Assembly (NCBI GenBank): GCA_963704755.1
Contig: OY969938.1
Location: 1,620,001-1,652,000 of the forward strand
Direction of reading: 5' to 3'
DNA length: 32,000 nt
Source of the DNA: an uncultured Chloroflexia bacterium
Lineage (GTDB): Bacteria > Chloroflexota > Anaerolineae > Anaerolineales > Anaerolineaceae
The position numbers and the translations under genes are program-made. Positions 11,428 through 27,805 of the stretch are shown piece by piece. Numbering within the stretch: the stretch's first letter is position 1; each line of letters starts with the position of its first letter. The notes under the pieces are model-generated. The model had not been told where the DNA came from, did not search any database, and was given only the letters and a program-made list of their open reading frames with translations.

Positions 11428-11456
11428 AAAAGAAAAAAGAGGAACCACACCGTTCC
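11428..11456 (-). terminator. weak intrinsic-terminator candidate after the locus-1 deoR-type gene
   Basis: The minus strand reads GGAAC-ggtgtg-GTTCC followed by TCTTTTTTCTTTT. The stem is only 5 bp, so confidence is low. Confidence 0.3.
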
Positions 11457-11482
11457 GGTTTTTGGCCTTGATTTACAGGCAG

Positions 11483-12917: not shown

Positions 12918-13316
12918 CTACCCGGTTACCTGGGTATAAATCTCTATTTTCGGGGGATTTTCCAGGTGCTTTTTCACCGCACACAGTTGAGCAGAACGCA
13001 CCAGGGAGTCGTAATATTTCTCCGGGAAATCGGGTGGGACCTGGATTTCCAGGTCGATCTTTTCGGTCATATGAGTTTCTGCGTTGACACGGACATGTTC
13101 GATGATTTGAATGCCTTCCGCGGGAATATCCCGGCTGCGGCAAAATTTGATGACATAATAACCGGCACAGGTACCAATGGCTGAAAGAAAATAATCGAAC
13201 GGGGTCGGAGCGGTCCCCTCGCCACCCTTTGCCAGGGGCTGATCGGTGGATATATGCGTTGTTTCCAGGGCTGCATCTACCCGCACGCCCCCTGGGAAGG
13301 TGATTTTGATATCCAT
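12918..13316 (-). CDS. OsmC/Ohr-family protein
   Basis: 132 aa; ..GGEGTAPTPFDYFLSAIGTCAG.. and ..SAQLCAVKKHL.. carry the two conserved Cys regions of OsmC-like proteins. AAGGAA precedes ATG 13316. Confidence 0.85.
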   Translation of the reverse strand: MDIKITFPGGVRVDAALETTHISTDQPLAKGGEGTAPTPFDYFLSAIGTCAGYYVIKFCRSRDIPAEGIQIIEHVRVNAETHMTEKIDLEIQVPPDFPEKYYDSLVRSAQLCAVKKHLENPPKIEIYTQVTG

Positions 13317-13412
13317 TGATGCAATTTCCTTATCGCAAATTTGTTTCCATAAGGGGTTATGACGCAGATCCGCCGCTTACAAGTGCATCCGCGCCAATTC
13401 ATTTAGCCGCAC

Positions 13413-14285
13413 TCACGCCGGTAAATAATCCAATGTAGAAAGTATTTCCTGCATCGCATTCCAGGATTCGAGCACGCCGCCGGCCTTGGTCCCATCCTGT
13501 CCCAGGAAGTGAGGTTCCACGCTCACCGCGCCTTCGTATTTTCGCTGGATCAATTCTCGGAAAATGATGTTCCAGGGAATAATCCCCTGGCCCAGGGCCA
13601 GGTATTGGCGCGAGCCATCCGGCTTTAGCAGAATATCCTTGGCGTGTACATGCGCCAACAGCGGCAGCATGGCCGGCATAGACTGAATGCAGTCCGGCTC
13701 GCCGGCCCGCACGCTCCCGGCCGGGTCCCACAACAGGCGGAAGGCCGGCGAATCAACGGTTGCTACCAACCTGGCCGCGTGACCGCCCCACCCAAACGAA
13801 GTATGCGGACAGGTCTCCATCGCCAGCACCACCCCGGCTTCTTTGGCCATTTCGGCCGGCTTCAGAAATCTTTTCGCGGCCCGCTCAAACAATTCGTCGG
13901 TGGGGCTGCCTTCATTATGGAAGCCAAAAACGCGGATCAACGGAGCGCCTAAAATTTTAGCCGACCGAATTGCCTGTTGGAGCGTTTTGAGATGGTAAGC
14001 ATAGTCGCCGGCAACGGCGTCAAAACCCCTTACCTCGGGTGCAATATCGGAGCGATCTTCCAGGTAACAGCGCAAGAATAAGGTGGATGCAATACACGAT
14101 ACTTTAAGGCCCTGGCCTTTAATTAGTTGGTTCAACCGCATTAATTCACCGTCATCCAGGGTTTCAATATTCTTGCCCCAAACACCGTGGATTTCAACTT
14201 CATCGAACCCATTCGTTTTGGCAAATTCGAGAGCTTGTTCAATGTCGTTGGAGATTTCGATGTTGATTACACTCTTTTTGAACAT
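13413..14285 (-). CDS. sugar phosphate isomerase/epimerase (xylose-isomerase-like TIM barrel)
   Basis: 290 aa; ..GFDEVEIHG.., ..LKVSCIAS.., ..VLAMETCPH.., ..WDPAG.., ..HVHAKD.. match the AP-endonuclease-2/xylose-isomerase-like TIM pattern. AGGAG lies 5 nt before the ATG. Confidence 0.85.
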   Translation of the reverse strand: MFKKSVINIEISNDIEQALEFAKTNGFDEVEIHGVWGKNIETLDDGELMRLNQLIKGQGLKVSCIASTLFLRCYLEDRSDIAPEVRGFDAVAGDYAYHLKTLQQAIRSAKILGAPLIRVFGFHNEGSPTDELFERAAKRFLKPAEMAKEAGVVLAMETCPHTSFGWGGHAARLVATVDSPAFRLLWDPAGSVRAGEPDCIQSMPAMLPLLAHVHAKDILLKPDGSRQYLALGQGIIPWNIIFRELIQRKYEGAVSVEPHFLGQDGTKAGGVLESWNAMQEILSTLDYLPA

Positions 14286-14490
14286 AAATACTCCTTATCC
14301 ATAAATTCCAACTGAGGTGTTTCGATTTTTCTTTTCGACAGCCATCGCCATCTACGGTCCTTCTCCTGGCATTTCCCCGTTTTCAGTGTCCTGACAGGCC
14401 AAACCGTATTTCTGGTGGAAGTCGAAGAATTTTTGTAAACCATCGTCGTTCGCCCGCAGGCCGGTATCGATGCGAGCGTAAAGCGGAACA

Positions 14491-15447
14491 TCACGTCAGC
14501 CTGGTAAACTGGGCAGTTTTTAAACCCGTTTCATACTTACTCATATCCAGCCAGCCAGAAATCCGGTGGTGAGCATTGGCAGTACCGGCCGCCGCACCGG
14601 CGATCAAAATATTTTGCCAGGTTTCACCCTGGGCCCACTTAACGGCCATCGCGGCCAGAAATGAATCTCCACTTCCCACCGGCCAAAGGCCTTTGTCATC
14701 GATATTCACATAATAAAATTCGGAATCCCGCGCGCCAACAGCGCCCTGGTCTCCCATAGTGATCACACAGGCCTGGATCCCCTGGGTCAAGAGCTGTTTG
14801 CAAGCCTTGATCGCATCCTCGATCGTTTCAATACATTCACCCAGATAATTACTGGCCTCATTGTTATTGATTTTGACGACGGTAGGCCTGGCGGTTAATA
14901 AATACCCAAGCGAGTCGCCCGTAGAATCGACGAAGCTGGGAACGCCTGCATCCCGGAACATTTTTACCAGGACCACGATTTCTTCTTTTTCAATTCCGGG
15001 GGGCATTCCCCCGGCAATAATCGCAGCTCCAAACTTCGTGTCACTTCGAATTTGTTCCTGGATCAATTCCACATAAGCGGCCCACTCTTGGGGCGTTATT
15101 TTGCTCCATTGTTCGGATAAATGAGTCGAAACCTGGCTGGTTTCATCCCAGATTTCGGTATATTGGCGGGTCTCGCTTTCGGTGCGAATCGCCAACAAAT
15201 CGATACCCTCTTTTTGGGCATACTCAAGAATCGCATTCCCGCGTTGCCCGCCCAGGGCACAAATGACCAATGGGTTGCCGCCGACATGCTGAATTGCCCT
15301 GGCGCCATTGATGCTTTTGCCCCCTGCCCGGTCTGCGTACTGAACGCAACGATTAATTTTTTCCAATTCAAAATTCGTAACCGTTAAATAATGATCGAGC
15401 GCAGGTGTAAGGGATATACACAAAATGTTTGGTTTGGTTGAATTCAT
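14491..15447 (-). CDS. PfkB-family hexose-phosphate kinase (1-phosphofructokinase / tagatose-6-phosphate kinase subfamily)
   Basis: N-terminus ILCISLTPALDHYLTV, AGGKSINGARAI (the GGKG-type motif), and C-terminal PVGSGDSFLAAM (the DTxGAGD-type motif). Confidence 0.88.
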   Translation of the reverse strand: MNSTKPNILCISLTPALDHYLTVTNFELEKINRCVQYADRAGGKSINGARAIQHVGGNPLVICALGGQRGNAILEYAQKEGIDLLAIRTESETRQYTEIWDETSQVSTHLSEQWSKITPQEWAAYVELIQEQIRSDTKFGAAIIAGGMPPGIEKEEIVVLVKMFRDAGVPSFVDSTGDSLGYLLTARPTVVKINNNEASNYLGECIETIEDAIKACKQLLTQGIQACVITMGDQGAVGARDSEFYYVNIDDKGLWPVGSGDSFLAAMAVKWAQGETWQNILIAGAAAGTANAHHRISGWLDMSKYETGLKTAQFTRLT

Positions 15448-15544
15448 CTATAGAAAATCCTCATAGCATAGATTTCAATTTCTTGAAACTATTTCCTCCT
15501 CGTCCCCAGCCTTGCAATAAGAAGACGTAGATCAACGAATAAGC

Positions 15545-16555
15545 CTAGATATTCGTATTCTCTCTCTTGAAAATCACGTTCATCAAAACCGCGGTCAGGA
15601 TCAGGACACCCCGTACGATCCCTTGGGATTGCGAATTTACACCCATCAAGACCAATCCATTCCCAATGACGGATGTGAACAGCACACCAATCAACGACCC
15701 GAGCATCCCGCCCCGCCCACCGGTGAGCGAAGTGCCGCCAATGACCACCGCGGCGATTGCCGAAAATTCCAAACCATCGGCGACTGCCCCGGTAGAAACA
15801 CCAAGCCGTGAACAGTACAACAAACCGGTTAGCGCAGCCAAAAAGCCGTTGATCCCAAATATCGAGGCGCGCACGATTTTTAGATTGACGCCAGATGCGA
15901 ACGCGGCTTTGGCATTACCGCCAATGGTGTAGATGGACCGGCCGTAAATTGTGTTTTTGGCAATATAGGTAAAAACTAACAACAAGACAAAAGCAATGAT
16001 CACCAGGTACGGTATACCCGCCACGCTTCCGGAAGCAATATCCGTAAAACCCGCCGGCGCCTTGTCGAGCGGAATGGGAATATTGTTAGAAAGCACTTGT
16101 TTTAAGCCATCGTAAATGCTGAACAACGCCAATGTGGTTACAAATGAAGGTACGTTGAAGCGCGCCCGGAGATAACCGCCCCCAAAAGACACCAGGGTTG
16201 TGGTTAGCAGAACCAGTAATACCGAAACCATGAAGGGAAAATTATGCCGTGTGGTGAGCCAGCCCAGCAGAACCGCGCTAAACCCTGTGGCCATACCCAC
16301 ACTGACATCAATTTCGCCCGCGATGATCACCAGGGTCATGCCCCAGGTCACGATCCCCAGAAAAGCGGCCGACCGCAGAACATTGATAAGGTTTGGGGAA
16401 GTCAGAAACGCCTTGTTTTGTGAAGCAAAAAAGGCCCCGAGAGCAAAAAGTGCGATCAGCAGGCTGATAATGTTGAGATTTTGCTGGACAAACCCCTTAA
16501 ATCCCGAAAAATATTTACCGTTCGCAGAAGTACCTTGATTCACGCTATCGCTCAT
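15545..16555 (-). CDS. sugar ABC transporter permease (RbsC-type; the only permease gene in locus 2)
   Basis: Polytopic protein with GEIDVSVGMA and GGTSLTGGRGGMLGS. ATGA overlap with the ATPase stop at 16552..16555. Confidence 0.9.
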   Translation of the reverse strand: MSDSVNQGTSANGKYFSGFKGFVQQNLNIISLLIALFALGAFFASQNKAFLTSPNLINVLRSAAFLGIVTWGMTLVIIAGEIDVSVGMATGFSAVLLGWLTTRHNFPFMVSVLLVLLTTTLVSFGGGYLRARFNVPSFVTTLALFSIYDGLKQVLSNNIPIPLDKAPAGFTDIASGSVAGIPYLVIIAFVLLLVFTYIAKNTIYGRSIYTIGGNAKAAFASGVNLKIVRASIFGINGFLAALTGLLYCSRLGVSTGAVADGLEFSAIAAVVIGGTSLTGGRGGMLGSLIGVLFTSVIGNGLVLMGVNSQSQGIVRGVLILTAVLMNVIFKRENTNI

Positions 16556-18060
16556 AATTTTTGAGTTCCTCCGTTTGCCAGTAAATTAATTTTTTCCAAA
16601 TCAAGTTCGGATCTGAGATATTTCCGAGAGGCTTTTCCACCATACAAGAAAATGATCGATTGGCAGAAGTACAGCAGTTCTTCCAATTCTGTAGCGACAA
16701 CGATGACGCCCACCCCGCGCCTTGCGGCAGAACGAATGATTTCGTATATCTGGTTTTTCGCCTCGATATCCACCCCGCGGGTTGGTTCATCCAGTAATAA
16801 AACGTGATCGGCAATATCGAGCCAGCGTCCAATCACAACTTTCTGCTGGTTGCCACCCGACAAATTCATAATCGGCGTATCACAGGTCGGCGATTTGATG
16901 GACAGGCGGTTAATCAAATCGATCGTGACCTCTCGTACTCCCCGCCAGGAAATTTTCCCGGCCTTGCACAAAGACTTCCAGCGCCCGATGGTGATATTTT
17001 CGTCTACGCCCAGGTAGGGAAAAATGCCCTCGACTTTACGGTTTTCCGGGCTTAGCGCCACCCCGTTCTTGATCATGTGCTGAATATTGGGGCGATATCT
17101 TCTTCCATCTTGCGAGACCAGGCGGATATGCCCCAACCCGGCCTGGTCGAAACCCGCAATCGCCCGCAGAACTTCACTGCGCCCCGAACCAAGTAACCCA
17201 GCCAGGCCAAGCACCTCACCCTGGTGCAAATCGAATGAAACGTTTTCCACTCGCCTGGGGATGGTTAACCCCTCTACTTCTAACAATACAGGCGCTGATT
17301 GGAAATCAATGGCCTCGACCCCTTTGAGTTCCACCGTTTCCCCGACCATGTAATTAACAATATCTTTGTCAGATACTTCTGAGATCGGTGCGGTGATCAC
17401 GAGCTTGCCGTTGCGCAAAATCGTGACCAAATCGGCTACCTGGCCAATCTCTTCCAGCCGGTGCGACACATAAATTATTCCAACGCCTTGTTTTGATATT
17501 TGCTTGACTATCTTGAGCAGCGTGGCCACTTCCGGTGAGGCCAGGCTCGAGGTGGCTTCGTCGAGCAGCAGCACAGCCGGGTTGTGCGATAACGCTTTGG
17601 CAATCTCGATAAGCTGCTGTTGGGCCGGGCTTAGATTGCCAACCAATGTATCCGGGCTGAGCTTCACTTCGAGCAGTTCCAATGTTTCGGTCGCCAGCCG
17701 GCGCATTTCTGTCCGGTCTATTTGCCCATGTAGTTTTGGCCACTTCCCGAGAGCAATGTTTTCCGCCACATCGAGATACGGTAGAACATTGAGTTCCTGG
17801 CTGACTATTTCGATCCCCCTCTCCCGCGCCTCATGTGGATTTCGAAATACAACTTGTTGACCCTTGAGAGAAATTGTGCCTTCCTCGGGTTTTTCCAGGC
17901 CGCAAGCGATGCGAACCAATGTCGATTTCCCTGCGCCATTTTTACCCAACAAGGCCCGTACTTCACCCGGCTTGATGGAGAAATCGACCCGATCGAGTGC
18001 GATTACGCCAGGATATACTTTTCGAATTTTATCTAAGGAAAGTGCGGAGGTGACATCCAT
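16552..18060 (-). CDS. sugar ABC transporter ATP-binding protein, duplicated ATPase domains
   Basis: GKNGAGKSTL, LLLDEATSSL, GLLGSGRSEV, LSGGNQQKVVIGRWL, LLLDEPTRGVDIEAK. The start is placed at ATG 18060 (MDVTSALSLDKIRKVYPG) because the track extension to 18144 runs through the intercistronic hairpin. Confidence 0.92.
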   Translation of the reverse strand: MDVTSALSLDKIRKVYPGVIALDRVDFSIKPGEVRALLGKNGAGKSTLVRIACGLEKPEEGTISLKGQQVVFRNPHEARERGIEIVSQELNVLPYLDVAENIALGKWPKLHGQIDRTEMRRLATETLELLEVKLSPDTLVGNLSPAQQQLIEIAKALSHNPAVLLLDEATSSLASPEVATLLKIVKQISKQGVGIIYVSHRLEEIGQVADLVTILRNGKLVITAPISEVSDKDIVNYMVGETVELKGVEAIDFQSAPVLLEVEGLTIPRRVENVSFDLHQGEVLGLAGLLGSGRSEVLRAIAGFDQAGLGHIRLVSQDGRRYRPNIQHMIKNGVALSPENRKVEGIFPYLGVDENITIGRWKSLCKAGKISWRGVREVTIDLINRLSIKSPTCDTPIMNLSGGNQQKVVIGRWLDIADHVLLLDEPTRGVDIEAKNQIYEIIRSAARRGVGVIVVATELEELLYFCQSIIFLYGGKASRKYLRSELDLEKINLLANGGTQKL

Positions 18061-18131
18061 TGATAAGATACCTTTGTATCCACGGCTCCAATCGATATGT
18101 ATTTTTAGGGGCGAACTGGGGAAGAAATAAT

Positions 18132-18170
18132 TCCAGGTAGCCATCCCTACCTGCTGAATGGCTACCTGGA
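18132..18170 (-). promoter_or_regulatory. intercistronic hairpin between the solute-binding-protein and ATPase genes (13-bp stem TCCAGGTAGCCAT / ATGGCTACCTGGA, 13-nt loop)
   Basis: An exact inverted repeat 12 nt after the solute-binding-protein stop (18182). Confidence 0.6.
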
Positions 18171-18181
18171 TAAGCTAAATT

Positions 18182-19279
18182 CTATTGATGGCCGTCAAGC
18201 CAGGTTTGGGCTTTGGAAGGATCGCTGGAGAAGAACTCGACCGGATCCATGTTGTAGATCAGGGTTGAATTGGGTTCACCATTGATGGCATTCAGCGCCA
18301 TGTCAAGGCTGGTCTTGCCAAAATCTTCCGCAATCATGGCGTTGATGTACTTGACGATGCTGCCGTTGATGACGAGTTTGGCCGTGGCCGGGGAAATGTC
18401 ATGACCAAATACGACTACTTTACCATCCAGGCCGGCCTGCTGGATCGCAACTGCCGCACCCTGGATCATGTTGCCGGCTTCGCAATAGAAACCATTGATG
18501 TCCGGGTGAGCGGTCAGCATATTGGTGGCGGTTTCAGCGGCGGTATCCACTTCGATGGCCTGCTGATCGTCGACGATCACGGCACCCGGAACAATCGCCG
18601 TCAGCGCTTCGGTGAAGCCCTTGATCCGGTCCTGGCACACACCGTACTGCTCACAACCGACTACGCCAATTTTCGGATCGGTAATGCCGGCGGCCACAAA
18701 ATAATCACCCATTGCCTTGCCGGTGTCGTATCCTTGCTGATGCTGATCGCCAGTCACATAGGCATAGACGTATTTTTCGGCATCATCGGTATTGATGCAC
18801 GAGTTGTAGCAAATGACCGGAATACCCGCATCATGGGCCTGCTGGATGAGCGCTACCGAAGAAGTCGTGGATACTGCCGAGATGATGATCGCATCCGCTT
18901 TGACACCGATTAACGTCTGCATCTGATTGGCTTCCGTATCGGCATTGCCATTGCTGTTACTGTCCATCATATTGAGATCAAGGTTTTTATCGGCAGCCTC
19001 TGCCACGATACCTGCTTTTACGCCCGTATAAAATTCGCTTGCATCAAGCCAAAGCGCACCGATGGTCAGCTTTTCTGCAGTTGCAGCTTCAGTTGGCTGC
19101 ACCGCGACCTCAGTTGGTTGGACTTCGGCTGGGGCTGTATCGATGGGTTGTACTTCAGTCGGCGCAACTTCGGTCGACTGAACCTCAGCCGGCGCGGTTG
19201 TCGCCGCCGGCCCTGCACATCCGACAAGAAAACTTGCAAGTAATATTAGTGCGACAAACAGAAAAAGCGACCTTTTCAT
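18182..19279 (-). CDS. sugar ABC transporter substrate-binding lipoprotein (type I periplasmic-binding fold)
   Basis: Signal peptide plus lipobox (LASFLVGCAG) and a repetitive tether (AEVQSTEVAPTEVQPIDTAPAEVQPTEVAVQPTEAATAE), then a PBP-I domain (..DAIIISAV.., ..GIPVICYNS..). AAGGAG precedes ATG 19279. Confidence 0.88.
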   Translation of the reverse strand: MKRSLFLFVALILLASFLVGCAGPAATTAPAEVQSTEVAPTEVQPIDTAPAEVQPTEVAVQPTEAATAEKLTIGALWLDASEFYTGVKAGIVAEAADKNLDLNMMDSNSNGNADTEANQMQTLIGVKADAIIISAVSTTSSVALIQQAHDAGIPVICYNSCINTDDAEKYVYAYVTGDQHQQGYDTGKAMGDYFVAAGITDPKIGVVGCEQYGVCQDRIKGFTEALTAIVPGAVIVDDQQAIEVDTAAETATNMLTAHPDINGFYCEAGNMIQGAAVAIQQAGLDGKVVVFGHDISPATAKLVINGSIVKYINAMIAEDFGKTSLDMALNAINGEPNSTLIYNMDPVEFFSSDPSKAQTWLDGHQ

Positions 19280-19322
19280 TTTTTCTCCTTTTTTGTACGC
19301 TAATGTCGGTTTTGATGGTTGT

Positions 19323-19352
19323 ATTATAGATCTTAATGTAACTATTTGTCAA
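19323..19352 (-). promoter_or_regulatory. near-consensus sigma70-type promoter of the locus-2 transport operon (TTGACA-18-TATAAT)
   Basis: The minus strand reads TTGACAaatagttacattaagatcTATAATac, about 45 nt upstream of ATG 19279. Confidence 0.6.
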
Positions 19353-19358
19353 CATTAT

Positions 19359-19387
19359 TTGCATAAATTCGCTTTATGCTATATAAT
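19359..19387 (+). promoter_or_regulatory. near-consensus sigma70-type promoter of the deoR-aldolase-kinase operon (TTGCAT-17-TATAAT) overlapped by a 7-5-7 palindrome
   Basis: The plus strand reads TTGCATaaattcgctttatgctaTATAAT. GCATAAA-ttcgc-TTTATGC (19361..19379) sits over the -35 and spacer. GTG 19441 is preceded by AAAGGA. Confidence 0.6.
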
Positions 19388-19440
19388 ACGAATCATCAAC
19401 AAACTTTAATACATTAAACGACACGAAAGCAAAGGATATT

Positions 19441-20241
19441 GTGAACGAACCTAACTCAACAACTCCGCGATTCTTGCTCCCTGAAGAACGACGCAAAATC
19501 ATTCTAAAGTTGCTCCGAGAACAAGGTAGTGTTCGCACCACAACGCTTGCCGAACAAATGGATGTAAATCCTGCCACAGTCCGCCGCGATTTACGCGACA
19601 TGGCTGCCGAAAAGGAATTACGGCTGGTGCATGGGGGAGCGACGATTGCATCTTCAGTCCAACCCGTAACGGTTAATTACGATCTGGACGTCAAACGGTC
19701 TGCAAATATCGAAGCAAAAATGCAGATTGCCAAAAAAGCCCTGGACCTGATCCACGACGGGGATATTATCGCCCTGACATCCGGCTCTACTGTGGAGTTG
19801 ATTGTCCAGAACCTTCCCCGCGATTACAAATCGCTGACGGTGGTGACCCTCAGCCTGAACGTGGCCTGTCTGGCTGCCAAGTTTCCATATATTAAGTTGA
19901 TGATCCCCGGCGGTGAGCTATTCCGCCCGTCGCAGGCGATCGTCGGCCAGGATGCAGTCCATTTCATTTCAACCTTACGCATCGATAAGGGCTTCTTCGG
20001 GGCGCAAGCGGTGGACGTCAACGCCGGGTTTACCGAATCCAACCATTTGGAAGTGGCCACCAACCGGGAACTTTTCAATGTTTGCACCCACCAATACCTG
20101 GTCGCCGATTCTTCTAAATTTGGGCACGTGGCCCTGGGGCATATCTGTGATCTCGACGAGTTCGATGGCCTGATAGTGGACGATAACGTGCCCAACTCGA
20201 TCCGTTCCTGGGCCGTGGCGACCGGCGTAGAGCTAATCTAG
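19441..20241 (+). CDS. DeoR/GlpR-family transcriptional regulator (locus 2)
   Basis: HTH EERRKIILKLLREQGSVRTTTLAEQMDVNPATVRRDLRDMAAEKELRLVHGGA plus a DeoR C-terminal domain. GTG start. Confidence 0.92.
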   Translation: MNEPNSTTPRFLLPEERRKIILKLLREQGSVRTTTLAEQMDVNPATVRRDLRDMAAEKELRLVHGGATIASSVQPVTVNYDLDVKRSANIEAKMQIAKKALDLIHDGDIIALTSGSTVELIVQNLPRDYKSLTVVTLSLNVACLAAKFPYIKLMIPGGELFRPSQAIVGQDAVHFISTLRIDKGFFGAQAVDVNAGFTESNHLEVATNRELFNVCTHQYLVADSSKFGHVALGHICDLDEFDGLIVDDNVPNSIRSWAVATGVELI

Positions 20242-20312
20242 GGGTTGCTGCGGATCGATAATTCCGATCAACCCACATTATTGACGAACTACAATTTAGA
20301 AGAGGCGTTTAT

Positions 20313-21119
20313 ATGGATGCACGAGTTGGAAAACGGATCAGGCTTGGGCGAATATTCCGCCCGGCAGACAAACGCTGTGTAGCGATCGCGTATTCGCACG
20401 GCGTTCTGCTCGGCCCCGGAAAAGGGTTCCAAACCTTTGAGCAAATGGATCAGATGATGGAAATTTTTCAAGGCGCGGACGCCGTGATGCTCTCACCCGG
20501 GATGCTCGACCAATTGGACGGTCACTTCGTGGGACGCGATCACCCGGGCCTGATCGTCCAGGCTGACTGGCAAAATGTAGGCCGGGCCAGAGACGGGGCT
20601 TTTGCGGGCCAAGGCCTCTCAGTTCCTATGCTCACGGCCGAGCAGGCCGTGGCCGCCGGCGCCGATGCGATCATGACCTATCTATGGATGGGCGGGGATA
20701 ACCCCGGGCTGGAAGCCGGCGAAGTGGCCAGAAATTCCGCCTACGCCCGCGCCTGTGAAGCGGCTGGCCTGCCATTGTTGATCGAATTGCGCGGGTTGGG
20801 CCAGGAAAACGGCAAGGACGGTAAACCCGATCTCGAATTGCTCAAATTCCATACCCGCGTGGCGGCTGAATTAGGCGCCGACTTCATTAAAACTAAATAT
20901 TCCGGCTCGGTCGAAACTTTTCGCGAGGTCACTTCGCAGTGCCCGGTGCCCATCCTGGTCGCCGGCGGCTCGCGTCTCTCGACCGATGCGGATGCGCTCA
21001 AGCTGGTCGAAGATGTCATTGCCGGCGGCGGCGCGGGGGTTGTGTTTGGCCGCAACATCTTCCAATTTGACGATCCTTCCAGCATGTTGAAGCGGATCCT
21101 CGAAAGGGTACACTGCTGA
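20313..21119 (+). CDS. class I aldolase of the DhnA/FbaB/LsrF (DeoC/LacD superfamily) type
   Basis: 268 aa; ..AVAAGADAIMTYLWMG.., ..ELGADFIKTKYSG.. (candidate Schiff-base Lys), ..PVPILVAGGSR.., ..GVVFGRNIFQ... GAAGAGG precedes the ATG. Confidence 0.8.
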   Translation: MDARVGKRIRLGRIFRPADKRCVAIAYSHGVLLGPGKGFQTFEQMDQMMEIFQGADAVMLSPGMLDQLDGHFVGRDHPGLIVQADWQNVGRARDGAFAGQGLSVPMLTAEQAVAAGADAIMTYLWMGGDNPGLEAGEVARNSAYARACEAAGLPLLIELRGLGQENGKDGKPDLELLKFHTRVAAELGADFIKTKYSGSVETFREVTSQCPVPILVAGGSRLSTDADALKLVEDVIAGGGAGVVFGRNIFQFDDPSSMLKRILERVHC

Positions 21120-21156
21120 GAATTAGGTGCCTTTTTACGGATGTAAAAGAGGTTTA

Positions 21157-22734
21157 ATGGCTAACCAATATATCTTGAATGTGGACGTTGGTACATCCAG
21201 TACGAAAACAACCCTGTGGAGCGCGGAAGGCAAGACCGTCGCCGAAGCCTGCATCGCCAATGTGCTCCACCGCCCCGACCCGGTCATCGCCGAAATTGAC
21301 GGCAATGCCTGGTGGCAGGTAGTGTGCCAGACCATTCATAGCGTGATCGCCCAATCAGGCGTCCAGCCAAACGAAATCGCCGGGATCGGCGTGGATGGGA
21401 TCGGCCTGGCGCTCGTCCCAGTGGACCGAAATGTGAACCCCCTTGCACCGGTGATGATCTGGCTCGACCGCCGGGCCAGCCTTGAGGCTGCCTGGCTGAA
21501 AAGCCTGCCCGAGTCGCAACACCTGCTGGAATTGGTCGCCAATCCCCTGGATGAATCCTACGTCACCCCCAAGCTGGTTTGGTTGAAGAATAACCATCCC
21601 GATATATTCGAGGCCACCTATCAATTCCTTGGCTCAACCGGGTTTATCGTTGCCCGCCTTACCGGTGAATTTACCTGCGATTACACCCAGGCTTACGCCT
21701 TTCACTTCTTCGACATGAAAAATGAGTGCTGGGATCCTCAAGCCGCTGAGACGGTGGGGGTTCCGCTGGACAAGATGCCGCGTTTGTACTCTCCTCACGA
21801 GGTGGTCGGCCGGGTTACCAGCCGGGCCGCGGCAGAAACCGGGTTGCGTCCGGGCATTCCGGTCATCGCCGGCTGCCTGGATGCAATCGCAGGGGCCCTG
21901 GGCGCCGGGGTGACCCGCCCCGGCCAGACCAACGAACAAGGCGGGCAGGCCGGTGGTTTTGGCATCAGTGTGGAGCGCATGATCGTCGAGCCGCGCCTGG
22001 TTTTCTCGCACCACCTGGTTCCGGGCCAGTACCTGCTTTCCGCCAGCACGGTAGGCGGCGGTGTGTTGGGCTGGTTCCACGATCAGGTCGAAAACAAACA
22101 CCCGGATCCGGTCAAACCGGGATGCTTTGAGGAATACAGCGCATCGGCCAGAACTTCTCCCGCCGGCGCAAATGGTCTGATCTTCTTGCCATACATGGCC
22201 GGAGAGCGCACCCCCCTTTGGAGTAACATCGCCCGCGGTGTATTTTTTGGGCTTTCCTACAGCTCAAGCCAGGCCGATATTTTACGGGCGATGATGGAAG
22301 GCTGCGCATTCGCGGTGTCCGACAACCTCGCTATCGCCGCGGAACATGGCGTTACGGTAACCGAGTTTCTCGGTTCGGGCGGGGCATCCAAAAGCGCCGA
22401 ATGGTGCCAGATCAAAGCAGATGTCTATGGGCTGCCGTTTGTGGTGGCCCAAAGAGCCGGCGGCGGTGAAGGCGGCAACAGCCTGGGCCTGTTCGCCATC
22501 ACCGCCCATGCCGTCGGCATTTTCGCCGATATCCAGGAATGTGTGAATACATTATTGCCCAACCGGCGGCTTTACGAACCCTCCGAAAAGAACCACGCCT
22601 TGTATCGTGAACTCTTCCAGGTTTATCGCAGTATTTCTCACAAATTAATGGCCGACTTCAGCACGCTCGATCAAATCCGAACCAGTTTTCAAGGCAAGAC
22701 AAGGGAGTTTAGTACCGATCCGAAAATTGCATAG
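21157..22734 (+). CDS. FGGY-family carbohydrate kinase (about 525 aa, long form)
   Basis: MANQYILNVDVGTSSTKTTLW (FGGY N-terminal motif), ..LPYMAGERTPLW.., ..GSGGASKSAEWCQIKADV... ATG 21157 is preferred because AGAGG lies 5 nt upstream. Confidence 0.9.
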   Translation: MANQYILNVDVGTSSTKTTLWSAEGKTVAEACIANVLHRPDPVIAEIDGNAWWQVVCQTIHSVIAQSGVQPNEIAGIGVDGIGLALVPVDRNVNPLAPVMIWLDRRASLEAAWLKSLPESQHLLELVANPLDESYVTPKLVWLKNNHPDIFEATYQFLGSTGFIVARLTGEFTCDYTQAYAFHFFDMKNECWDPQAAETVGVPLDKMPRLYSPHEVVGRVTSRAAAETGLRPGIPVIAGCLDAIAGALGAGVTRPGQTNEQGGQAGGFGISVERMIVEPRLVFSHHLVPGQYLLSASTVGGGVLGWFHDQVENKHPDPVKPGCFEEYSASARTSPAGANGLIFLPYMAGERTPLWSNIARGVFFGLSYSSSQADILRAMMEGCAFAVSDNLAIAAEHGVTVTEFLGSGGASKSAEWCQIKADVYGLPFVVAQRAGGGEGGNSLGLFAITAHAVGIFADIQECVNTLLPNRRLYEPSEKNHALYRELFQVYRSISHKLMADFSTLDQIRTSFQGKTREFSTDPKIA

Positions 22735-22735
22735 C

Positions 22736-22774
22736 GTGTTTGTTTTTAGCGGCTTTGCCGCCAAAAACAAACAC
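22736..22774. repeat. palindromic hairpin, family copy a (GTGTTTGTTTTTAGCGGC-ttt-GCCGCCAAAAACAAACAC)
   Basis: 18-bp arms with one mismatch, starting 2 nt after the kinase stop codon (22732..22734). The T-run is 5' and the A-run 3' of the GC core. Confidence 0.75.
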
Positions 22775-22843
22775 TTTAAAATATTTTTCGGATCGAATTC
22801 CCGGTCGATCTTCGGAACGATAAATATCAGTGGAGGTTTTTTA

Positions 22844-23893
22844 ATGAAAGCAGCAATCTTGGAAGCCCAAAGGGTGATGAGTTATCAGGAGGTTCCTACC
22901 CCTACACCCCTGCCTGGGAATGTACGGTTACAAATTAAAGCGACATCGATCTGCGGGTCAGATATTAAGCGCTACAAATCGGGCCACCGGCTGTACCCCA
23001 TCATCCTGGGGCATGAATGTGGCGGCGTCGTCGATCAGGTTGGGGAAGGCGTCGACCAGAGCTTGCTTGGAAAACACGCCTCCGTGGCTCCCTTGATTCC
23101 CTGCTTCAACTGCGTCGAGTGCGACCGGGGATATTATTCCGCCTGCCCCAATTATTCCTTTATCGGCTCACGCCAATCCGGAAGTTTCGCCGATTACGTC
23201 GAACTGCCGGCCACGAACCTCTTCGTAGTTCCTGACCAGATTCCTTTCGAACACGTGGCCATGATCGAGCCCTCCACCGTGGCCAGGCACATGGTTGCCC
23301 GGGGTGACTTTGTCGCCGGTGAAACGGCCCTCGTTTTCGGAGTCGGTTCGATCGGATTATTGGTGGTGCAATGGCTGCGAATTTTAAAGGCCAAATTGAT
23401 CATTGGCGTCGATATATCGGATGAAAACTTGCAAACCGCCCGCAAGCTGGGCGCACACGCCACGATCAATCTCTTGCGCGAGGACGTGGTCAGCGAAGTA
23501 CGCAAACTGACCGGAGATGGCGTCGATGTATCTTTTGAAGCGGCCGGCGTGCCCCAAACCCTGGAAAAAACCATCCCGGTTACCCGGCCGCGTGGAAGAG
23601 TGGTTCTGGCCGGTAACCAGCCGGTCGATAAATCGATCCAGTTATCCTTTATCGAGAACCTGATCCGCCGCGAGTTGAGCGTCAGGGGCAGTCACATGTC
23701 CTTCTCCGCGCCTTTCCCGGGCCACGAATGGACCGATACCGTCACCGCCTTGATGGACAAAAGCCTGGATATGGACACCTTGATCACCCATCGTTTCTCC
23801 CTGGCCGAAGCGCCCGAGGTCTTCGCTAAAATCGGCGATGGCTCCTTGAAGTTCTGCAAAATCATGCTTCAACCCGAGCACGCCAATCAATAA
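22844..23893 (+). CDS. Zn-dependent MDR-family dehydrogenase, galactitol-1-phosphate 5-dehydrogenase (GatD)/sorbitol-dehydrogenase-like
   Basis: SICGSD and GHECGG (catalytic Zn), CFNCVECDRGYYSAC (structural Zn), GVGSIG (NAD). Blocks PLIPCFNCVEC..FIGSRQSGSFADY..IEPSTV and EAAGVPQT..FPGHEW recall E. coli GatD from memory. GGAGG lies 6 nt before ATG 22844, and the track start at 22727 runs through the hairpin. Confidence 0.85.
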   Translation: MKAAILEAQRVMSYQEVPTPTPLPGNVRLQIKATSICGSDIKRYKSGHRLYPIILGHECGGVVDQVGEGVDQSLLGKHASVAPLIPCFNCVECDRGYYSACPNYSFIGSRQSGSFADYVELPATNLFVVPDQIPFEHVAMIEPSTVARHMVARGDFVAGETALVFGVGSIGLLVVQWLRILKAKLIIGVDISDENLQTARKLGAHATINLLREDVVSEVRKLTGDGVDVSFEAAGVPQTLEKTIPVTRPRGRVVLAGNQPVDKSIQLSFIENLIRRELSVRGSHMSFSAPFPGHEWTDTVTALMDKSLDMDTLITHRFSLAEAPEVFAKIGDGSLKFCKIMLQPEHANQ

Positions 23894-24113
23894 TCTCTCT
23901 TTCAGTACGCTATAGCCCATTTTTGGAACACCTTTTTTTACCCAAAACGGACCGCGGTCCCTTTGGTTAGTTAGCTGCACCTTCTTTCAGGAAAAAACAC
24001 CCGAAAGAACGCCATCTGGCGGCAGATTACCGGTTTAGCCATTAGTTCACAATTCACCGGCAGGAAAATCGCCGGTTGCCCGGCTGGAAATCATTGACCA
24101 CACCTTGGAGATT

Positions 24114-24689
24114 ATGATGATCGATTTACCTTTTACCTACACGCTCTCGTTGCCAAAAGTTGTCCCCTCCCGGGTGGACAACTACATCACCAGAAAGTTA
24201 TCCAATCTGAAAGGCATGTTCAACGATGAGGCCGCCTATGACCAGATGCTGGCCGGCGGCGATCAACTGGTCTATGAAGTTTACGAGATCCAACGCCCGG
24301 AGGTCGAAGGCGAAATGCTGATGGGCATTTCAGTCGTTCACCCGGGCAGGGTTGGCGATGAATTTTTCATGACCAAAGGACATTTCCATTCCGTCCTTGA
24401 GACTTCGGAAGTGTACTATTGCCTCCGCGGCGAAGGCTACATGGTCATGGAAACGCCTGAAGGGGAAACCTCTGTGGAAACGCTGACCCCAGGCACAGTT
24501 CTGTACGTACCTCCCCGTTGGGCGCATCGCTCCGTGTGCACTTCCAGGCAGGATGACCTGGTCACACTTTTTGTCTATCCGGCCAACGCCGGCCACGATT
24601 ATGGCACGATCGAACGGACAGGTTTTCGCAAGCTGGTCGTCGATAGTGAAAACGGCCCAAAAATCATTGACAATCCCCGCGTCCGCTGA
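24114..24689 (+). CDS. cupin-type glucose-6-phosphate isomerase family protein (archaeal-type cPGI)
   Basis: TKGHFHSVLETSEVYYCLRGEGYMVMETPEG and VPPRWAHRSV match the cupin PGI signature known from Pyrococcus/Thermococcus (TxGHxH...ExY; PPxxxH). GGAG lies just upstream of ATG 24114/24117. Confidence 0.8.
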   Translation: MMIDLPFTYTLSLPKVVPSRVDNYITRKLSNLKGMFNDEAAYDQMLAGGDQLVYEVYEIQRPEVEGEMLMGISVVHPGRVGDEFFMTKGHFHSVLETSEVYYCLRGEGYMVMETPEGETSVETLTPGTVLYVPPRWAHRSVCTSRQDDLVTLFVYPANAGHDYGTIERTGFRKLVVDSENGPKIIDNPRVR

Positions 24690-24784
24690 CCGTCGGGATG
24701 GTCCGGCTCGAAAGAAATTGCGCGAATATCGAAATCGCAAGCGCATCCCGAACTGAAGCCCTGTAACCTGAGGAAGAAATCATC

Positions 24785-25741
24785 ATGAACACTGAACCCT
24801 ATCCAATTGTAAAGAAAACAGTGCCTACTTTCTATTTTATCGGCGTGACGACCGGGAAATCCTCCATCATGAAAGTCTTTCCGCAGTGGATGAAGGTTTT
24901 AGGGAAAGAAGATGTCGTCATCGAAGGCGTGGATTGCAAGATCCATGACGACCCCGAAAAATACCGGGCCGCCGTCGCCCAAATCAAGAACGACGCACTT
25001 TCCTTGGGGGCTCTCGTTACCACCCACAAAATTGACCTGCTCACTGCCGCCCGGGATATGTTCGACTATCTCGACCCATACGCGGCCATAACCGGTGAGG
25101 TTTCCAGCATCTCCCGGCTGGACGGGCGGCTGGAAGGGCACGCCAAGGATCCCATTTCCTCTGGAGCCAGCCTGGACGCCATCGTCGGCAAAGATTATTT
25201 TGCCCGCACCGGCGCTGAGGTGCTCTGCTTTGGCGCCGGCGGCTCGGCTATAGCGACTTTGCTGCACCTGATGAATAAAAAAGATAAAGCGGACCGCCCG
25301 CGCCGGTTTACTTTTGTGAATCGCTCCCAGTGCCGCCTGGATCACGCCCGGGAAATGGTGAACACCCTCGGCACGGATATCGAAATCGAATACGTCTGCA
25401 ACGCCGACCCGAAAGTCAACGATCAAATCCTGGAGAAATTCCCTCCCAAGAGCGTCATCATCAACGCGACCGGCATGGGTAAAGATACCCCCGGTTCTCC
25501 CATCACCTGGGAAGGGCGATTCCCGGTCGAGAGCATCGCCTGGGAGTTCAATTACCGCGGCGAGCTGGATTTCCTCCATCAAGCCCTGGCGCAGGCGGAG
25601 AGCCGCTGCCTGAAAGTCGAAGACGGCTGGCTTTATTTTGTGCATGGCTGGACCCAGGTGGTTTCCCAGGTTTTTCATTTCGACCTCACCCCCGAGTTAT
25701 TCGCAGCGCTCAACCGGGCGGCTTCCGCCGTCCGAGGATAA
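24785..25741 (+). CDS. shikimate/quinate dehydrogenase-family (AroE-like) oxidoreductase
   Basis: 318 aa; ..FYFIGVTTGKSSIMKVFP.., ..GALVTTHKID.., GAGGSAIAT (Rossmann), ..INATGMGK... GAGGAAG precedes the ATG. Confidence 0.75.
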   Translation: MNTEPYPIVKKTVPTFYFIGVTTGKSSIMKVFPQWMKVLGKEDVVIEGVDCKIHDDPEKYRAAVAQIKNDALSLGALVTTHKIDLLTAARDMFDYLDPYAAITGEVSSISRLDGRLEGHAKDPISSGASLDAIVGKDYFARTGAEVLCFGAGGSAIATLLHLMNKKDKADRPRRFTFVNRSQCRLDHAREMVNTLGTDIEIEYVCNADPKVNDQILEKFPPKSVIINATGMGKDTPGSPITWEGRFPVESIAWEFNYRGELDFLHQALAQAESRCLKVEDGWLYFVHGWTQVVSQVFHFDLTPELFAALNRAASAVRG

Positions 25742-25817
25742 TCAATAGATTTTCTGCATGGGACTGGCGGATAGGGATGAACTTCTCGCGAAAGCTCGAT
25801 GAAAACAAAAATATTCT

Positions 25818-25899
25818 GTTACTGCTCAGGCAAGGTCAGAAGGTAAGCGTGGTTTATTATTTTTTGCGTACTCCGCACGCAAAAAATAATAAAAACACC
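25818..25899 (+). repeat. family copy b: 14-nt box GTTACTGCTCAGGC + 17-nt spacer + hairpin (25849..25899)
   Basis: The perfect 17-bp core TTTATTATTTTTTGCGT / ACGCAAAAAATAATAAA has apex C-TCC-G and the right arm ends ATAAAAACACC. The box is identical to the reverse complement of 31561..31574. Confidence 0.75.
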
Positions 25900-25972
25900 T
25901 CGTTCTCCTGCTGTAGCTAAGTAGTTACAAAATCCCTGCATCTATATTAGGAACAATGAAAGGTTGGCTACG

Positions 25973-26668
25973 ATGTTATTAACAGCTTCTGATGTCGCCA
26001 GGATGATCGACCTCTCCTGTGTTCGCACCATATCCGATAAAGCGGATATCGAGGAAATGGTTTCGGCCGCTCGCAGCTATGGATTTGGGCAGGTTTCTGT
26101 GCTGCAATGTTTTATTCCCTACACCCGCCAGCTTTTGGCAGGTTCCGCGGATATCCACGTCGTTGGGAACGTGAGCTTTCCTTCGGGCTCAGATACTACC
26201 TCGATTAAGGTGTGCCAGGCCAAAGAGATGGTCTCCGCCGGCTGCGATGAGATCGACACCGTGATGAACATTGGTAAATTAAGGTCTGGCGACCTGGCCG
26301 AAGTTGAGCAAGATGTTCGTGCAGTGGTCGAAACCGTTCGCCCCATACCTGTCAAAGTCATCATCGAATATTCGGTACTCACCCCCAGCGAAGCGGAACA
26401 GGCCTGCAATATTTGCTTGAAGTGCGGGGCATCCTTCGTTAAAACCGGTTCCGGGTGGATTGGCCGCGGCACGACTGCCGAGGATGTCCATTTTATAAAA
26501 TCGATCGTCGGGGATCAAATCAAGATCAAAGCTTCGGGGGGTATTCGCGACCTGGCTACCCTGGTCGCGATGTATAAAGAAGGTGCCAGGCGGTTCGGCG
26601 TCAACCTGAGGAGTGGGATCAGCATCGTTGAAGAGTGCCGATCTTTGGGTACAGGCGTGACGATCTGA
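25973..26668 (+). CDS. deoC: DeoC-family aldolase (deoxyribose-phosphate aldolase-like)
   Basis: ..MIDLSCVRT.., ..NVSFPSGS.., ..GCDEIDTVMNIG.., ..ASFVKTGSGW.. (Schiff-base Lys context), ..IKASGGIR... The track start is TTG 25964; ATG 25973 lies 9 nt after AAAGG. Confidence 0.8.
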   Translation: MLLTASDVARMIDLSCVRTISDKADIEEMVSAARSYGFGQVSVLQCFIPYTRQLLAGSADIHVVGNVSFPSGSDTTSIKVCQAKEMVSAGCDEIDTVMNIGKLRSGDLAEVEQDVRAVVETVRPIPVKVIIEYSVLTPSEAEQACNICLKCGASFVKTGSGWIGRGTTAEDVHFIKSIVGDQIKIKASGGIRDLATLVAMYKEGARRFGVNLRSGISIVEECRSLGTGVTI

Positions 26669-27294: not shown

Positions 27295-27805
27295 TCAATT
27301 TTTGCAGAACGTTTCGTCCACCAGCGCCTGAACAGATGCGTTCAAAGGAACACCATTTTCCTGCATGGCCGTCAGGGTCTGGCAGGTTTCTTCCCGCAGG
27401 TAGGGAAAGTCGTTCACCTTGGGCGCTGTCGAGCGCAGCCAGTCCTCATCGCCCAGCACCGCGTAGGCTTGAATGAACGGCAGCCACTCCACCCGGTCGA
27501 TGGGATGATAGCCGTTAGCCTCAGCCTGTTGGTCCAAATCAGCCACTTGCTGGTAATCGCCGGTCTGTAAGGCCAGTTCGGCTTTTTCGTAATAGTAGCA
27601 CCAGGTATGGGCCGGCTCGGCGCCAAATAACGCCGCCGGCGGGGTCTGCGCGGGTCCGCTAGTTTCGATCGTGCCGATGTGGGAATAATCTGCCAGGGCC
27701 AGCACCTGGTCGCCCTCTCCCACGGATATGCGCGGCCAGGCCGAATCCAGGGCGTGTACGCAGGAGCCGTCCGTGGGTTGGCTGAGGATCAACAGGCGGT
27801 CGAAG
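27295..27805 (-). CDS. probable C-terminal continuation of the membrane protein (TPR-like soluble domain) in a +1-shifted frame
   Basis: This is track ORF 27295..27885. Its first about 25 codons look off-frame, and from ..DFDRLLILSQPTDGSCVHALD.. onward it is protein-like (..WCYYYEKAELALQTGDYQQVADLDQQAEANGYHP..). There is no ATG or SD for an independent start. Confidence 0.5.

Follow-up and report, generated by a model that had tools for sequence, protein, structure and literature searches.

How a bacterium might feed a hexitol into glycolysis without a phosphotransferase system (PTS) is the question raised by a divergent sugar locus from an uncultured member of the Chloroflexota (assembly GCA_963704755.1, contig OY969938.1, positions 1,620,001 to 1,652,000 of the forward strand; this whole stretch of 32,000 nucleotides is called the window here). 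At the locus one operon carries the genes for an ATP-binding cassette (ABC) importer of the CUT2 family, a PfkB kinase and a TIM-barrel protein, and the opposite operon starts with a DeoR-family repressor, a class I aldolase, an FGGY kinase and a GatD-like zinc dehydrogenase (ZnDH), followed on the same strand by a cupin-type phosphoglucose isomerase (PGI), a shikimate-dehydrogenase-like (SDH-like) protein and DeoC. It seems that the genes up to the dehydrogenase make up a conserved core for DeoR-repressed, PTS-independent alditol catabolism, with a galactitol-type hexitol as the likeliest substrate, a reading to which we give about an even chance of being correct. The initial annotation had proposed closely related chemistry and had taken all 13 genes as one regulon serving either two converging substrates or a longer route; the chemistry gains from what follows, and the single regulon is not supported.

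The conserved core and its enzymes

The locus is a real and intact gene cluster with a conserved DeoR-type core. Every open reading frame (ORF) named in the initial annotation is present, uninterrupted and within a few codons of where it had been placed, and profile searches of the window ORFs with Pfam and NCBIfam, from which the family labels used here are taken, agree with its gene calls and labels (Table 1). The start of the FGGY kinase recurs in an independent gene call on the identical contig. In two close relatives (L082 and L083 in our numbering of loci), whose aldolases are 76-81% identical to that of the window, the order TIM barrel-PfkB-permease-ATPase-binding protein, divergent from DeoR-aldolase-FGGY-ZnDH, is kept at 61-81% protein identity, and so the cluster is not a chance juxtaposition. 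Two further expectations are confirmed here, namely that two divergent operons share one regulatory region (161 bp, with back-to-back promoter-like sequences) and that a putative gat-like set of activities is present without a PTS, a CUT2 ABC importer being found instead of a PTS component. The named homologues of the locus proteins are from Anaerolineae-type Chloroflexota (Bellilinea, Anaerolineales), and the E. coli genomes and plasmids gave no megablast match to the locus DNA. DeoC is the sole protein of the locus to score above an NCBIfam equivalog or subfamily cut-off, the rest being divergent members of their families.

Orthologues of the FGGY kinase are numerous in the Anaerolineales, and a metagenome scan for them gave 80 loci, of which the 59 with a kinase identity of at least 54% were used to count neighbours, each denominator being the number of loci with sequence available at that position. 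Directly after the kinase orthologue (54-66% identity) comes a GatD-like ZnDH (41 of 42 loci), next a class II ketose-bisphosphate aldolase (22/29) and then a PfkB of the 1-phosphofructokinase (1-PFK) type (15/25). Upstream of the kinase stands an aldo-keto reductase in 35 of 40 loci, frequently in the company of a LacI regulator, an RbsD/FucU mutarotase and a CUT2 importer. The usual operon, LacI-(RbsD/FucU)-aldo-keto reductase-FGGY-ZnDH-class II ketose-bisphosphate aldolase-PfkB (L100, L101 and L103-L160), is very common in metagenomes and uncharacterised, and suggests a reductive route from an aldose through the alditol to an alditol-phosphate. In L100 and L101, which read aldo-keto reductase-FGGY-ZnDH-class II aldolase-PfkB, the kinase and dehydrogenase are 63-69% identical to those of the window, and in L100 the class II aldolase (265.5 bits against a cut-off of 215.6 for the ketose-bisphosphate aldolase model, 39% identity to GatY) and the PfkB (272.5 bits against 216.4 for the 1-PFK hexose kinase model) are both assignable. 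Genes of glycoside hydrolase families 31 (GH31) and 36 (GH36, melibiase) are found in L100 and one or the other in a few more loci, and in L158 a transporter of the window type stands directly upstream of the FGGY-ZnDH pair.

Two more distant contexts are informative. In Enterococcus termitis (L095, GCA_042681845.1) the aldolase, a GatD-like ZnDH (40% identical to GatD), an FGGY kinase, a PfkB and a flavin adenine dinucleotide (FAD) oxidase lie beside an EIIC of the galactitol PTS family. The locus L002 keeps the orthologous transporter, regulator, aldolase and PfkB, and here a tagatose-kinase-like PfkB (TagKinase 182.6 bits, cut-off 420) and an idonate/sorbitol-type ZnDH replace the FGGY kinase and the GatD-like ZnDH, an enzyme swap by which the same sort of ligand is turned into a ketohexose-phosphate along another path. 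Comparisons of the operons in L100, L101, L158, L095, L002 and the metagenome loci thus show the two kinases, the dehydrogenase and the aldolase to act as one unit ending in ketose-bisphosphate cleavage, as had been thought from the window sequence, and the aldolase and the second kinase to be each exchangeable for non-orthologous equivalents.

Two side observations belong to these loci. The regulator, EIIC, ZnDH and PfkB of L095 are each split into two or three ORFs, which looks like an indel-rich assembly rather than true pseudogenes. L002 is the closest match among species-representative genomes and is labelled as a metagenome-assembled genome of the Trueperaceae (Deinococcota), while Chloroflexota are the source of the named close homologues of the window's kinase and SDH-like protein; the mismatch could come from horizontal transfer or from an error in binning.

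The best model for the ZnDH is GatD, with 251.9 bits (equivalog cut-off 550; next family 193.8), and the enzyme is 36.5% identical to E. coli GatD, and a comparison with solved structures puts GatD at 224.9 bits, threonine dehydrogenases at no more than 160.7 and the free-polyol (xylitol and sorbitol) dehydrogenases at no more than 134, so that of the groups between which the initial annotation had wished to choose GatD is the nearest. It is therefore proposed, from this likeness, as a putative alditol-phosphate dehydrogenase nearest to galactitol-1-phosphate 5-dehydrogenase. The FGGY kinase is remote from every characterised member (26% identity to both E. coli XylB and LsrK) and is proposed as a putative alditol (hexitol) kinase, or alternatively a ketose kinase. 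The PfkB reaches 198.7 bits on TIGR03168 (cut-off 216.4) and a mere 20.6 bits on the TagKinase model, and has orthologues in L002, L082 and L083 (50-69% identity); its nearest solved structures are tagatose-6-phosphate kinase (LacC), fructose-1-phosphate kinase (FruK) and Pfk-2, in keeping with the type first assigned to it, and it is proposed as a putative ketohexose-phosphate kinase making a 1,6-bisphosphate. The TIM barrel matches L-ribulose-5-phosphate 3-epimerase (UlaE) and psicose or fructoselysine 3-epimerases best, and these weakly. It adjoins PfkB in L082 and L083 (61% identity), and neither L002 nor the operons with a class II aldolase have it; we propose a putative ketose(-phosphate) 3-epimerase or isomerase particular to this variant of the pathway, and its confinement there would imply that the stereoisomer handled differs from that of the class II aldolase operons.

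The aldolase needs a closer look. It matches MJ0400 ADH synthase (132.6 bits), LsrF (87 bits) and the fructose-bisphosphate aldolase of T. tenax (73 bits), so that the superfamily given in the initial annotation (DeoC/LacD, class I) holds; the enzyme is not LacD-like. For enzymes of this kind a phosphate-binding His, Gly-Gly and Gly-Arg and a catalytic Tyr (T. tenax Y146, MJ0400 Y153) are described (PMC2728841). In the alignment K193 (the Schiff base), H29, G218-G219 and G246-R247 of the window protein correspond to K203, H58, G226-227 and G253-R254 of LsrF. Among the closest homologues the Schiff-base lysine and Glu158 are invariant and 96 of 120 have Ser in an SHG motif, and archaeal members, which lie beside aromatic-biosynthesis genes, retain DHG...MMYP. 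By these motifs the enzyme is of the DhnA/MJ0400/LsrF type and of an uncharacterised, non-canonical SHG subfamily, and is proposed as a putative ketohexose-1,6-bisphosphate aldolase. The SHG group is large and auto-annotated as class I fructose-bisphosphate aldolase, with Ser for the canonical Asp and Glu for the catalytic Tyr. Relatives from Acidobacteriota, found beside FGGY kinases, keep the Asp (DHA, DHP or DHG) yet have the Glu too.

The neighbours of SHG aldolases are recurrent. A 1-PFK-type PfkB and a GlcD-like FAD oxidase lie beside them in L002, L082, L083, L085, L093 and L094, and gene-cluster analysis finds the same neighbours in L004, L007 and L027; in L085, L093 and L094 aldolase and PfkB occur under three other upstream contexts. 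In some Chloroflexota SHG aldolases are downstream of SIS and ROK genes, a context that would also yield a ketohexose-6-phosphate. The oxidase (PF01565 with PF02913, GlcD/D-lactate-dehydrogenase-like) is found on Chloroflexota-type contigs and in Enterococcus and Paracoccus, recurs in L002, L082, L083, L085, L093, L094, L095 and L007, has an Fe-S partner in L085 and closes the plus-strand operon in L082 and L083. A GlpD-like flavoprotein also adjoins in the Paracoccus (L007) and Salinicola (L017) loci. One idea is that the oxidase acts on glycerol-3-phosphate or a polyol-phosphate.

The proposed route, its order and its rivals

From these parts a route may be put together in which the CUT2 system would import the alditol and the FGGY kinase would phosphorylate a terminal hydroxyl, after which the GatD-like ZnDH would convert the alditol-phosphate to a ketohexose-6-phosphate. 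The TIM barrel may then adjust the stereochemistry by 3-epimerisation or isomerisation, the 1-PFK-type PfkB would make the ketohexose-1,6-bisphosphate and the class I aldolase would split it to dihydroxyacetone phosphate (DHAP) and glyceraldehyde-3-phosphate. A phosphorylated intermediate presumably lifts DeoR repression at the divergent promoters; DeoR-family repressors typically answer to sugar phosphates, and so a regulator of this family fits a sugar-phosphate pathway. Gene content, synteny, family assignments and the tight co-occurrence of the four activities are direct observations; what the substrate is, whether kinase or dehydrogenase acts first, what the TIM barrel does and what the aldolase cleaves are inferred. 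A hexitol is assigned because two kinases and a bisphosphate aldolase are needed, and galactitol is guessed from the likeness to GatD and GatY, the Gat-type EIIC in Enterococcus and the alpha-galactosidase neighbours in a few loci. The kinase is put before the dehydrogenase on account of the GatD likeness and of nothing else, and this is the main uncertainty of the scheme.

A number of observations weigh against the route so drawn. No core enzyme reaches an equivalog cut-off, and the functions given here are predictions. The best model for the FGGY kinase is xylulokinase (XylB, TIGR01312; 298.8 bits, under the cut-off of 380.25), and in the literature searched, coverage of which was incomplete, no hexitol kinase of the FGGY or any other family, no FGGY enzyme acting on hexitols and no bacterial oxidoreductive galactose route was found. 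MDR polyol-phosphate dehydrogenases, the superfamily of the ZnDH, act on pentitol phosphates too. In the aldolase the position of the Asp of the canonical DHG, an Asp which we take to be catalytic, is Ser28 in the motif YSHG, and around IELRG the catalytic Tyr is absent and Glu158 is nearby; with the canonical Asp and Tyr both missing, bisphosphate aldolase activity is not assured. The GlcD-like FAD oxidase is the usual partner of this aldolase and is without a role in the scheme, and neither the oxidase nor a remnant of it was found in the window. The closest named relatives of the binding protein are weak matches to D-allose binders (66.5 bits; PDB 5dte at E=5e-22), and since such allose and ribose binders, not hexitol binders, are its nearest relatives, it gives no usable clue to the ligand. 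Finally the aldo-keto reductase, ZnDH and FGGY kinase of the relatives equally match the fungal scheme of reductase, polyol dehydrogenase and ketose kinase, in which the dehydrogenase acts first.

This last order was the alternative that the initial annotation itself had offered. The ZnDH would oxidise the alditol to a free ketohexose, the FGGY enzyme would be a ketose kinase, the PfkB would add the second phosphate and the aldolase would cleave, in parallel with fungal polyol routes and with the galactitol route of Agrobacterium and Sinorhizobium. Such an order is possible and has to be taken seriously, although we hold it to be clearly less probable than the kinase-first one. It draws on the three enzyme families shared with the fungal scheme, on xylulokinase, the top model of the FGGY kinase, being a ketose kinase, on L002, which with its idonate/sorbitol-type ZnDH and tagatose-kinase-like PfkB clearly looks dehydrogenase-first, and on the published ABC-dependent galactitol/tagatose routes, which run that way (PMC9720028). 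The ZnDH however scores some 60-90 bits higher against GatD, a polyol-phosphate enzyme, than against the sorbitol, xylitol and threonine dehydrogenases. A working PTS delivers its polyol phosphorylated, and so the galactitol-family EIIC beside the E. termitis homologue, if it works, would supply that ZnDH with a phosphorylated polyol. The gene order reductase-kinase-dehydrogenase of the common operon argues in the same direction, weakly. A pentitol or pentose route, in which arabitol, xylitol or ribitol would be taken to a pentulose-5-phosphate by the FGGY kinase and the ZnDH, with the TIM barrel as a UlaE/SgbU-like 3-epimerase and with PfkB and aldolase serving elsewhere, would accommodate the weak best matches of the TIM barrel to L-ribulose-5-phosphate and L-xylulose-5-phosphate 3-epimerases, the nearness of the FGGY kinase to xylulokinase, the RbsD/FucU mutarotases of related operons and the known pentitol examples of MDR polyol-phosphate dehydrogenases and Gat-family PTS. 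It is nonetheless improbable, for it leaves the co-operonic ketose-bisphosphate aldolase and 1-PFK-type kinase, as counted above, without a role, and Pfam and NCBIfam find no 4-epimerase or other enzyme linking to pentose phosphates among the locus proteins.

Two further readings fare much worse. The locus recalls the lsr operon in combining a repressor and an ABC importer with an FGGY kinase (138 bits with LsrK) and an LsrF-family protein (87 bits between LsrF and the aldolase), and an LsrK-like FGGY enzyme might then phosphorylate an imported diketone or a signal like autoinducer-2 (AI-2), to be cleaved thiolytically by an LsrF-like enzyme. Against this the proposed catalytic Asp251 of LsrF (PMC2728841) is Val244 in the window aldolase, LsrG is missing from the locus proteins, the binding protein does not resemble LsrB (24 bits), the kinase scores higher against XylB than against LsrK, to which it is 26% identical, and AI-2 processing has no place for a GatD-like ZnDH or a PfkB. 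With Val244, the score of 126 bits against a cut-off of 297 on the LsrF thiolase model NF006081 and the negligible similarity to LsrB, this reading was rejected and we regard it as very unlikely indeed. Least probable of all is a route like the sulfo-Embden-Meyerhof-Parnas pathway, with sulfofructose as the substrate of PfkB and sulfofructose-1-phosphate as that of the class I aldolase. The locus does share with the E. coli yih operon, used for comparison (PMC9594981), the combination of a PfkB, a PF01791 class I aldolase and a DeoR regulator (30% identity to CsqR), but no sulfoquinovosidase (no GH31), sulfoquinovose isomerase, sulfolactaldehyde reductase or dehydrogenase, or sulfonate exporter is found at the locus. 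It was rejected as YihT and YihV are without significant similarity to the window aldolase and PfkB by BLASTP and phmmer; SqiA is a class II aldolase.

The kinase-first hexitol route can be extended to a joint reading, which is tentative and which we think rather more likely wrong than right as a whole. The FGGY enzyme would be an undescribed hexitol kinase and, with the GatD-like enzyme, would form a PTS-free and isomerase-free entry to a branch of the tagatose-6-phosphate type. Uncultured Chloroflexota would commonly have this pair, with the aldo-keto reductase first reducing an imported aldose, e.g. galactose. The last step of the branch in the window would fall to class I aldolases of a new catalytic subfamily, in which Ser and Glu replace the canonical Asp and Tyr. 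The GlcD-like partner usual for that subfamily may point to a further step, e.g. the handling of an L-configured triose via glycerol-3-phosphate.

The second module, the control region and other features

Five enzymes had been left unexplained by the initial annotation, and of these the TIM barrel is the only one that accompanies the core in relatives; the cupin PGI, the SDH-like protein and DeoC belong to another module, and OsmC is probably no part of the core. In L082 and L083 orthologues of the cupin PGI, SDH-like protein and DeoC (74-79% identical) are next door on the opposite, convergent strand, in a GntR-controlled operon of the order GntR-PTE-cupin-2-hydroxyacid dehydrogenase-Eda-SDH-like-DeoC. 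The orthologues of this second module are 65-81% identical overall in relatives (L082, L083 and L096; cupin 74-81%, DeoC 65-79%), and in other genomes the block is the centre of a larger GntR operon, which has FGGY kinases, dehydrogenases and a TIM barrel of its own, at no more than 26-30% identity to the window's. Because these orthologues sit in GntR operons, the three enzymes belong elsewhere, and together they are, to judge from their relatives, a relocated and truncated piece of a separate GntR-controlled operon. No remnants of the PTE, 2-hydroxyacid dehydrogenase, Eda or GntR genes were found in the window. In L096-L098 the GntR operon comprises FGGY, GFO/IDH/MocA, ZnDH, PTE lactonase-like, cupin PGI, PGDH-like 2-hydroxyacid dehydrogenase, Eda, SDH-like, DeoC, FGGY, TIM barrel, ZnDH, glyoxalase, OYE and MFS genes, and might serve a non-canonical oxidative route for a sugar phosphate.

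The proteins of this module are of unequal clarity. The cupin scores 116.7 bits on PF06560 (gathering threshold 20.7), aligns over its full length with PDB 1j3p and 1qxj (186 and 179 bits; deposited as phosphoglucose isomerase and glucose-6-phosphate isomerase) and has the metal-ligand pattern His-x-His...Glu with a distal His; of its two candidate starts the ATG at 24117 is most likely. DeoC scores 196.6 bits on TIGR00126 against a cut-off of 117.3, and its stretches FVKTGSG, KIKASGG and EIDTV presumably hold the catalytic Lys, Lys and Asp of 2-deoxyribose-5-phosphate aldolase. The SDH-like protein has no Pfam match and only weak matches to AroE. It has at least 8000 homologues, of which the best 119 listed are 79-85% identical, much tighter than for its neighbours. 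Its AlphaFold model is of low confidence (pLDDT 62) and the top 50 Foldseek matches listed are all of the SDH family, 5-ketofructose reductase included, which supports membership of the shikimate-dehydrogenase superfamily of oxidoreductases and that membership only. Where OsmC would be expected, L082 has DegV and L083 a small unrelated ORF, and so OsmC is probably a bystander and not part of the pathway.

In the divergent region two promoters are seen as pattern matches only, one on the minus strand towards the transporter operon (19352..19323, TTGACA-18-TATAAT, 12/12 of the sigma-70 consensus) and one on the plus strand towards the DeoR operon (19358..19387, TTTGCA-18-TATAAT, 10/12). They are flanked by an inverted 8-mer, TACATTAA, at 19333-19340 and 19410-19417, which in the window occurs at these two sites only, yet in 13 of 100 shuffles had at least two matches; it could be a candidate DeoR operator and is statistically unconvincing. 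In the operator search the intergenic regions of relatives aligned poorly with that of the window, and no copy of TACATTAA was found upstream of the cupin block. The regulator itself scores 133-156 bits on the AgaR, GlpR and SrlR models, all under their cut-offs, and has orthologues at the same position in L002, L082 and L083 (66-71% identity).

Of the importer, the ATPase scores 397-448 bits on AraG, XylG and RbsA-type models, under their cut-offs; as its homologues in relatives have 500-502 amino acids, its true start is probably some 28 codons downstream of 18144, near 18060. The binding protein has orthologues in L002, L082 and L083 (64-66% identity), and its N-terminal 75 or so residues consist of a lipobox (LVGCAG) and a repetitive linker of about 50 residues, rich in Pro, Thr, Glu and Val and built of (A)P-x-E-V-Q-P/S-T units, before the folded domain begins.

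Table 1. Features of the divergent locus and of the second sugar locus, in window coordinates
Feature	Position	Strand	Basis or remark
OsmC	12918-13316	-	PF02566
AP_endonuc_2 TIM barrel, xylose-isomerase-like	13413-14285	-	Pfam/NCBIfam
PfkB kinase, 1-PFK/LacC/Pfk-2 subfamily	14491-15447	-	Pfam/NCBIfam
CUT2 ABC permease, single gene, RbsC/GguB-like	15545-16555	-	profile match
ABC ATPase, two ATP-binding domains	16552-18144	-	profile match
CUT2 lipoprotein solute-binding protein	18182-19279	-	Peripla_BP_4
Divergent regulatory region, 161 bp	19280-19440	.	promoter pattern matches
DeoR/GlpR-family repressor, first gene of plus-strand operon	19441-20241	+	profile match
Class I aldolase, DeoC/LacD superfamily	20313-21119	+	PF01791
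FGGY kinase	21157-22734	+	FGGY_N and FGGY_C
Zn-MDR dehydrogenase (ZnDH), GatD-like	22844-23893	+	Pfam/NCBIfam
Cupin PGI	24105/24117-24689	+	PF06560
SDH-like protein	24785-25741	+	weak AroE matches
DeoC	25964-26668 (start perhaps ATG 26003)	+	TIGR00126
Second sugar locus: DeoR	11483-12301	-	
Second sugar locus: RhaS/LsrB-like binding protein	10187-11281	-	
Second sugar locus: ATPase	8573-10108	-	two permeases in the same locus
Second sugar locus: M29-peptidase-like protein	5533-6501	-	
Second sugar locus: FGGY kinase	3866-5422	-	
Second sugar locus: BtpA/SgcQ-family protein, two overlapping ORFs	3234-3836 and 2992-3576	-	profile positions 2-78 and 73-253

Elsewhere in the window a second sugar locus occupies 2992-12301 of the minus strand, and the split of its BtpA gene indicates a frameshift, which means either a pseudogene or a sequencing error. 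The large ORFs at 100-2403, 27295-27885, 27806-29338 and 30106-31077 have no significant Pfam match, the middle two, which overlap by 80 bases, have no NCBIfam match either, and that at 100-2403 has sub-threshold FG-GAP and TPR traces only. Rfam finds no RNA family in the window.

Relation to known systems and significance

Like the gat/tagatose-6-phosphate pathway, the proposed route would go from a hexitol-phosphate to a ketohexose-6-phosphate with a GatD-type enzyme, on to the 1,6-bisphosphate with a PfkB and by an aldolase to triose phosphates, and both are under a DeoR-family repressor. In contrast to the PTS uptake and phosphorylation of gat, the window has an ABC importer and an FGGY kinase, and where gat uses GatY (class II) or LacD the aldolase here is of the DhnA/MJ0400/LsrF-type class I with Ser and Glu for Asp and Tyr; the ZnDH is distant from GatD, at the identity given above, and the epimerase-like TIM barrel is extra. 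The common LacI-type operon of Chloroflexota shares with the window the orthologous FGGY kinase (54-66%) and GatD-like ZnDH (54-69%) and the same logic of kinase and ketose-bisphosphate aldolase. It differs in its aldo-keto reductase and mutarotase, which suggest that an imported aldose is first reduced, in a class II aldolase and a PfkB of another lineage (28-31% identity), in having no TIM barrel, and in being under LacI, whereas the window has a class I aldolase and DeoR. In the erythritol pathway of Brucella and Rhizobium an FGGY kinase (EryA), a polyol-phosphate dehydrogenase (EryB) and a TIM-barrel enzyme (EryC) are at work, so that the kinase coming first, the keto-sugar phosphate, the isomerisation by a TIM barrel, the ABC importer and a DeoR/SorC-type regulator are all as proposed here. 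Its C4 substrate, its GlpD-like flavoprotein dehydrogenase in place of a Zn-MDR enzyme and its having neither second kinase nor aldolase set it apart, and the likeness is one of logic.

The initial annotation had put forward, as one possibility, a longer route not described before. A. tumefaciens has an ABC-dependent galactitol/tagatose route similar to that of S. meliloti. PTS-independent galactitol/tagatose routes have been published for S. meliloti, with a tagatose kinase and a Tag-6-P epimerase, and for the tag cluster of E. coli Nissle 1917 (PMC9720028), so that as a class such routes are known, and it is the particular enzyme set that appears undescribed. These routes share with the window PTS independence, an ABC importer and soluble kinases, and the Nissle cluster also has divergent operons, a CUT2 importer and DeoR and ends in Tag-6-P -> Tag-1,6-BP -> DHAP and glyceraldehyde-3-phosphate (PMC9720028). 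They proceed through free tagatose, free galactitol being oxidised first where it is the substrate, and use a PfkB tagatose kinase, no FGGY kinase and no GatD-like enzyme, the Nissle aldolase being class II. Orthology to the Nissle D-tagatose cluster was rejected, the proteins being only 26-36% identical, and Pfam and NCBIfam find no enzyme of the tagatose-6-phosphate 4-epimerase type among the locus proteins.

If the proposed route is true, a soluble hexitol kinase would be added to the FGGY family, and there would be a third hexitol route into glycolysis besides the PTS and the dehydrogenase-first ones, probably serving galactose via galactitol also. The kinase-dehydrogenase pair is abundant in Anaerolineae-type Chloroflexota and so bears on models of carbon flow and on genome annotation, where these genes currently go as "xylulokinase", "threonine/sorbitol dehydrogenase" and "fructose-bisphosphate aldolase". 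The search for new enzymes has a defined target in the aldolase subfamily, in which catalytic residues are altered and a flavoenzyme partner is conserved.

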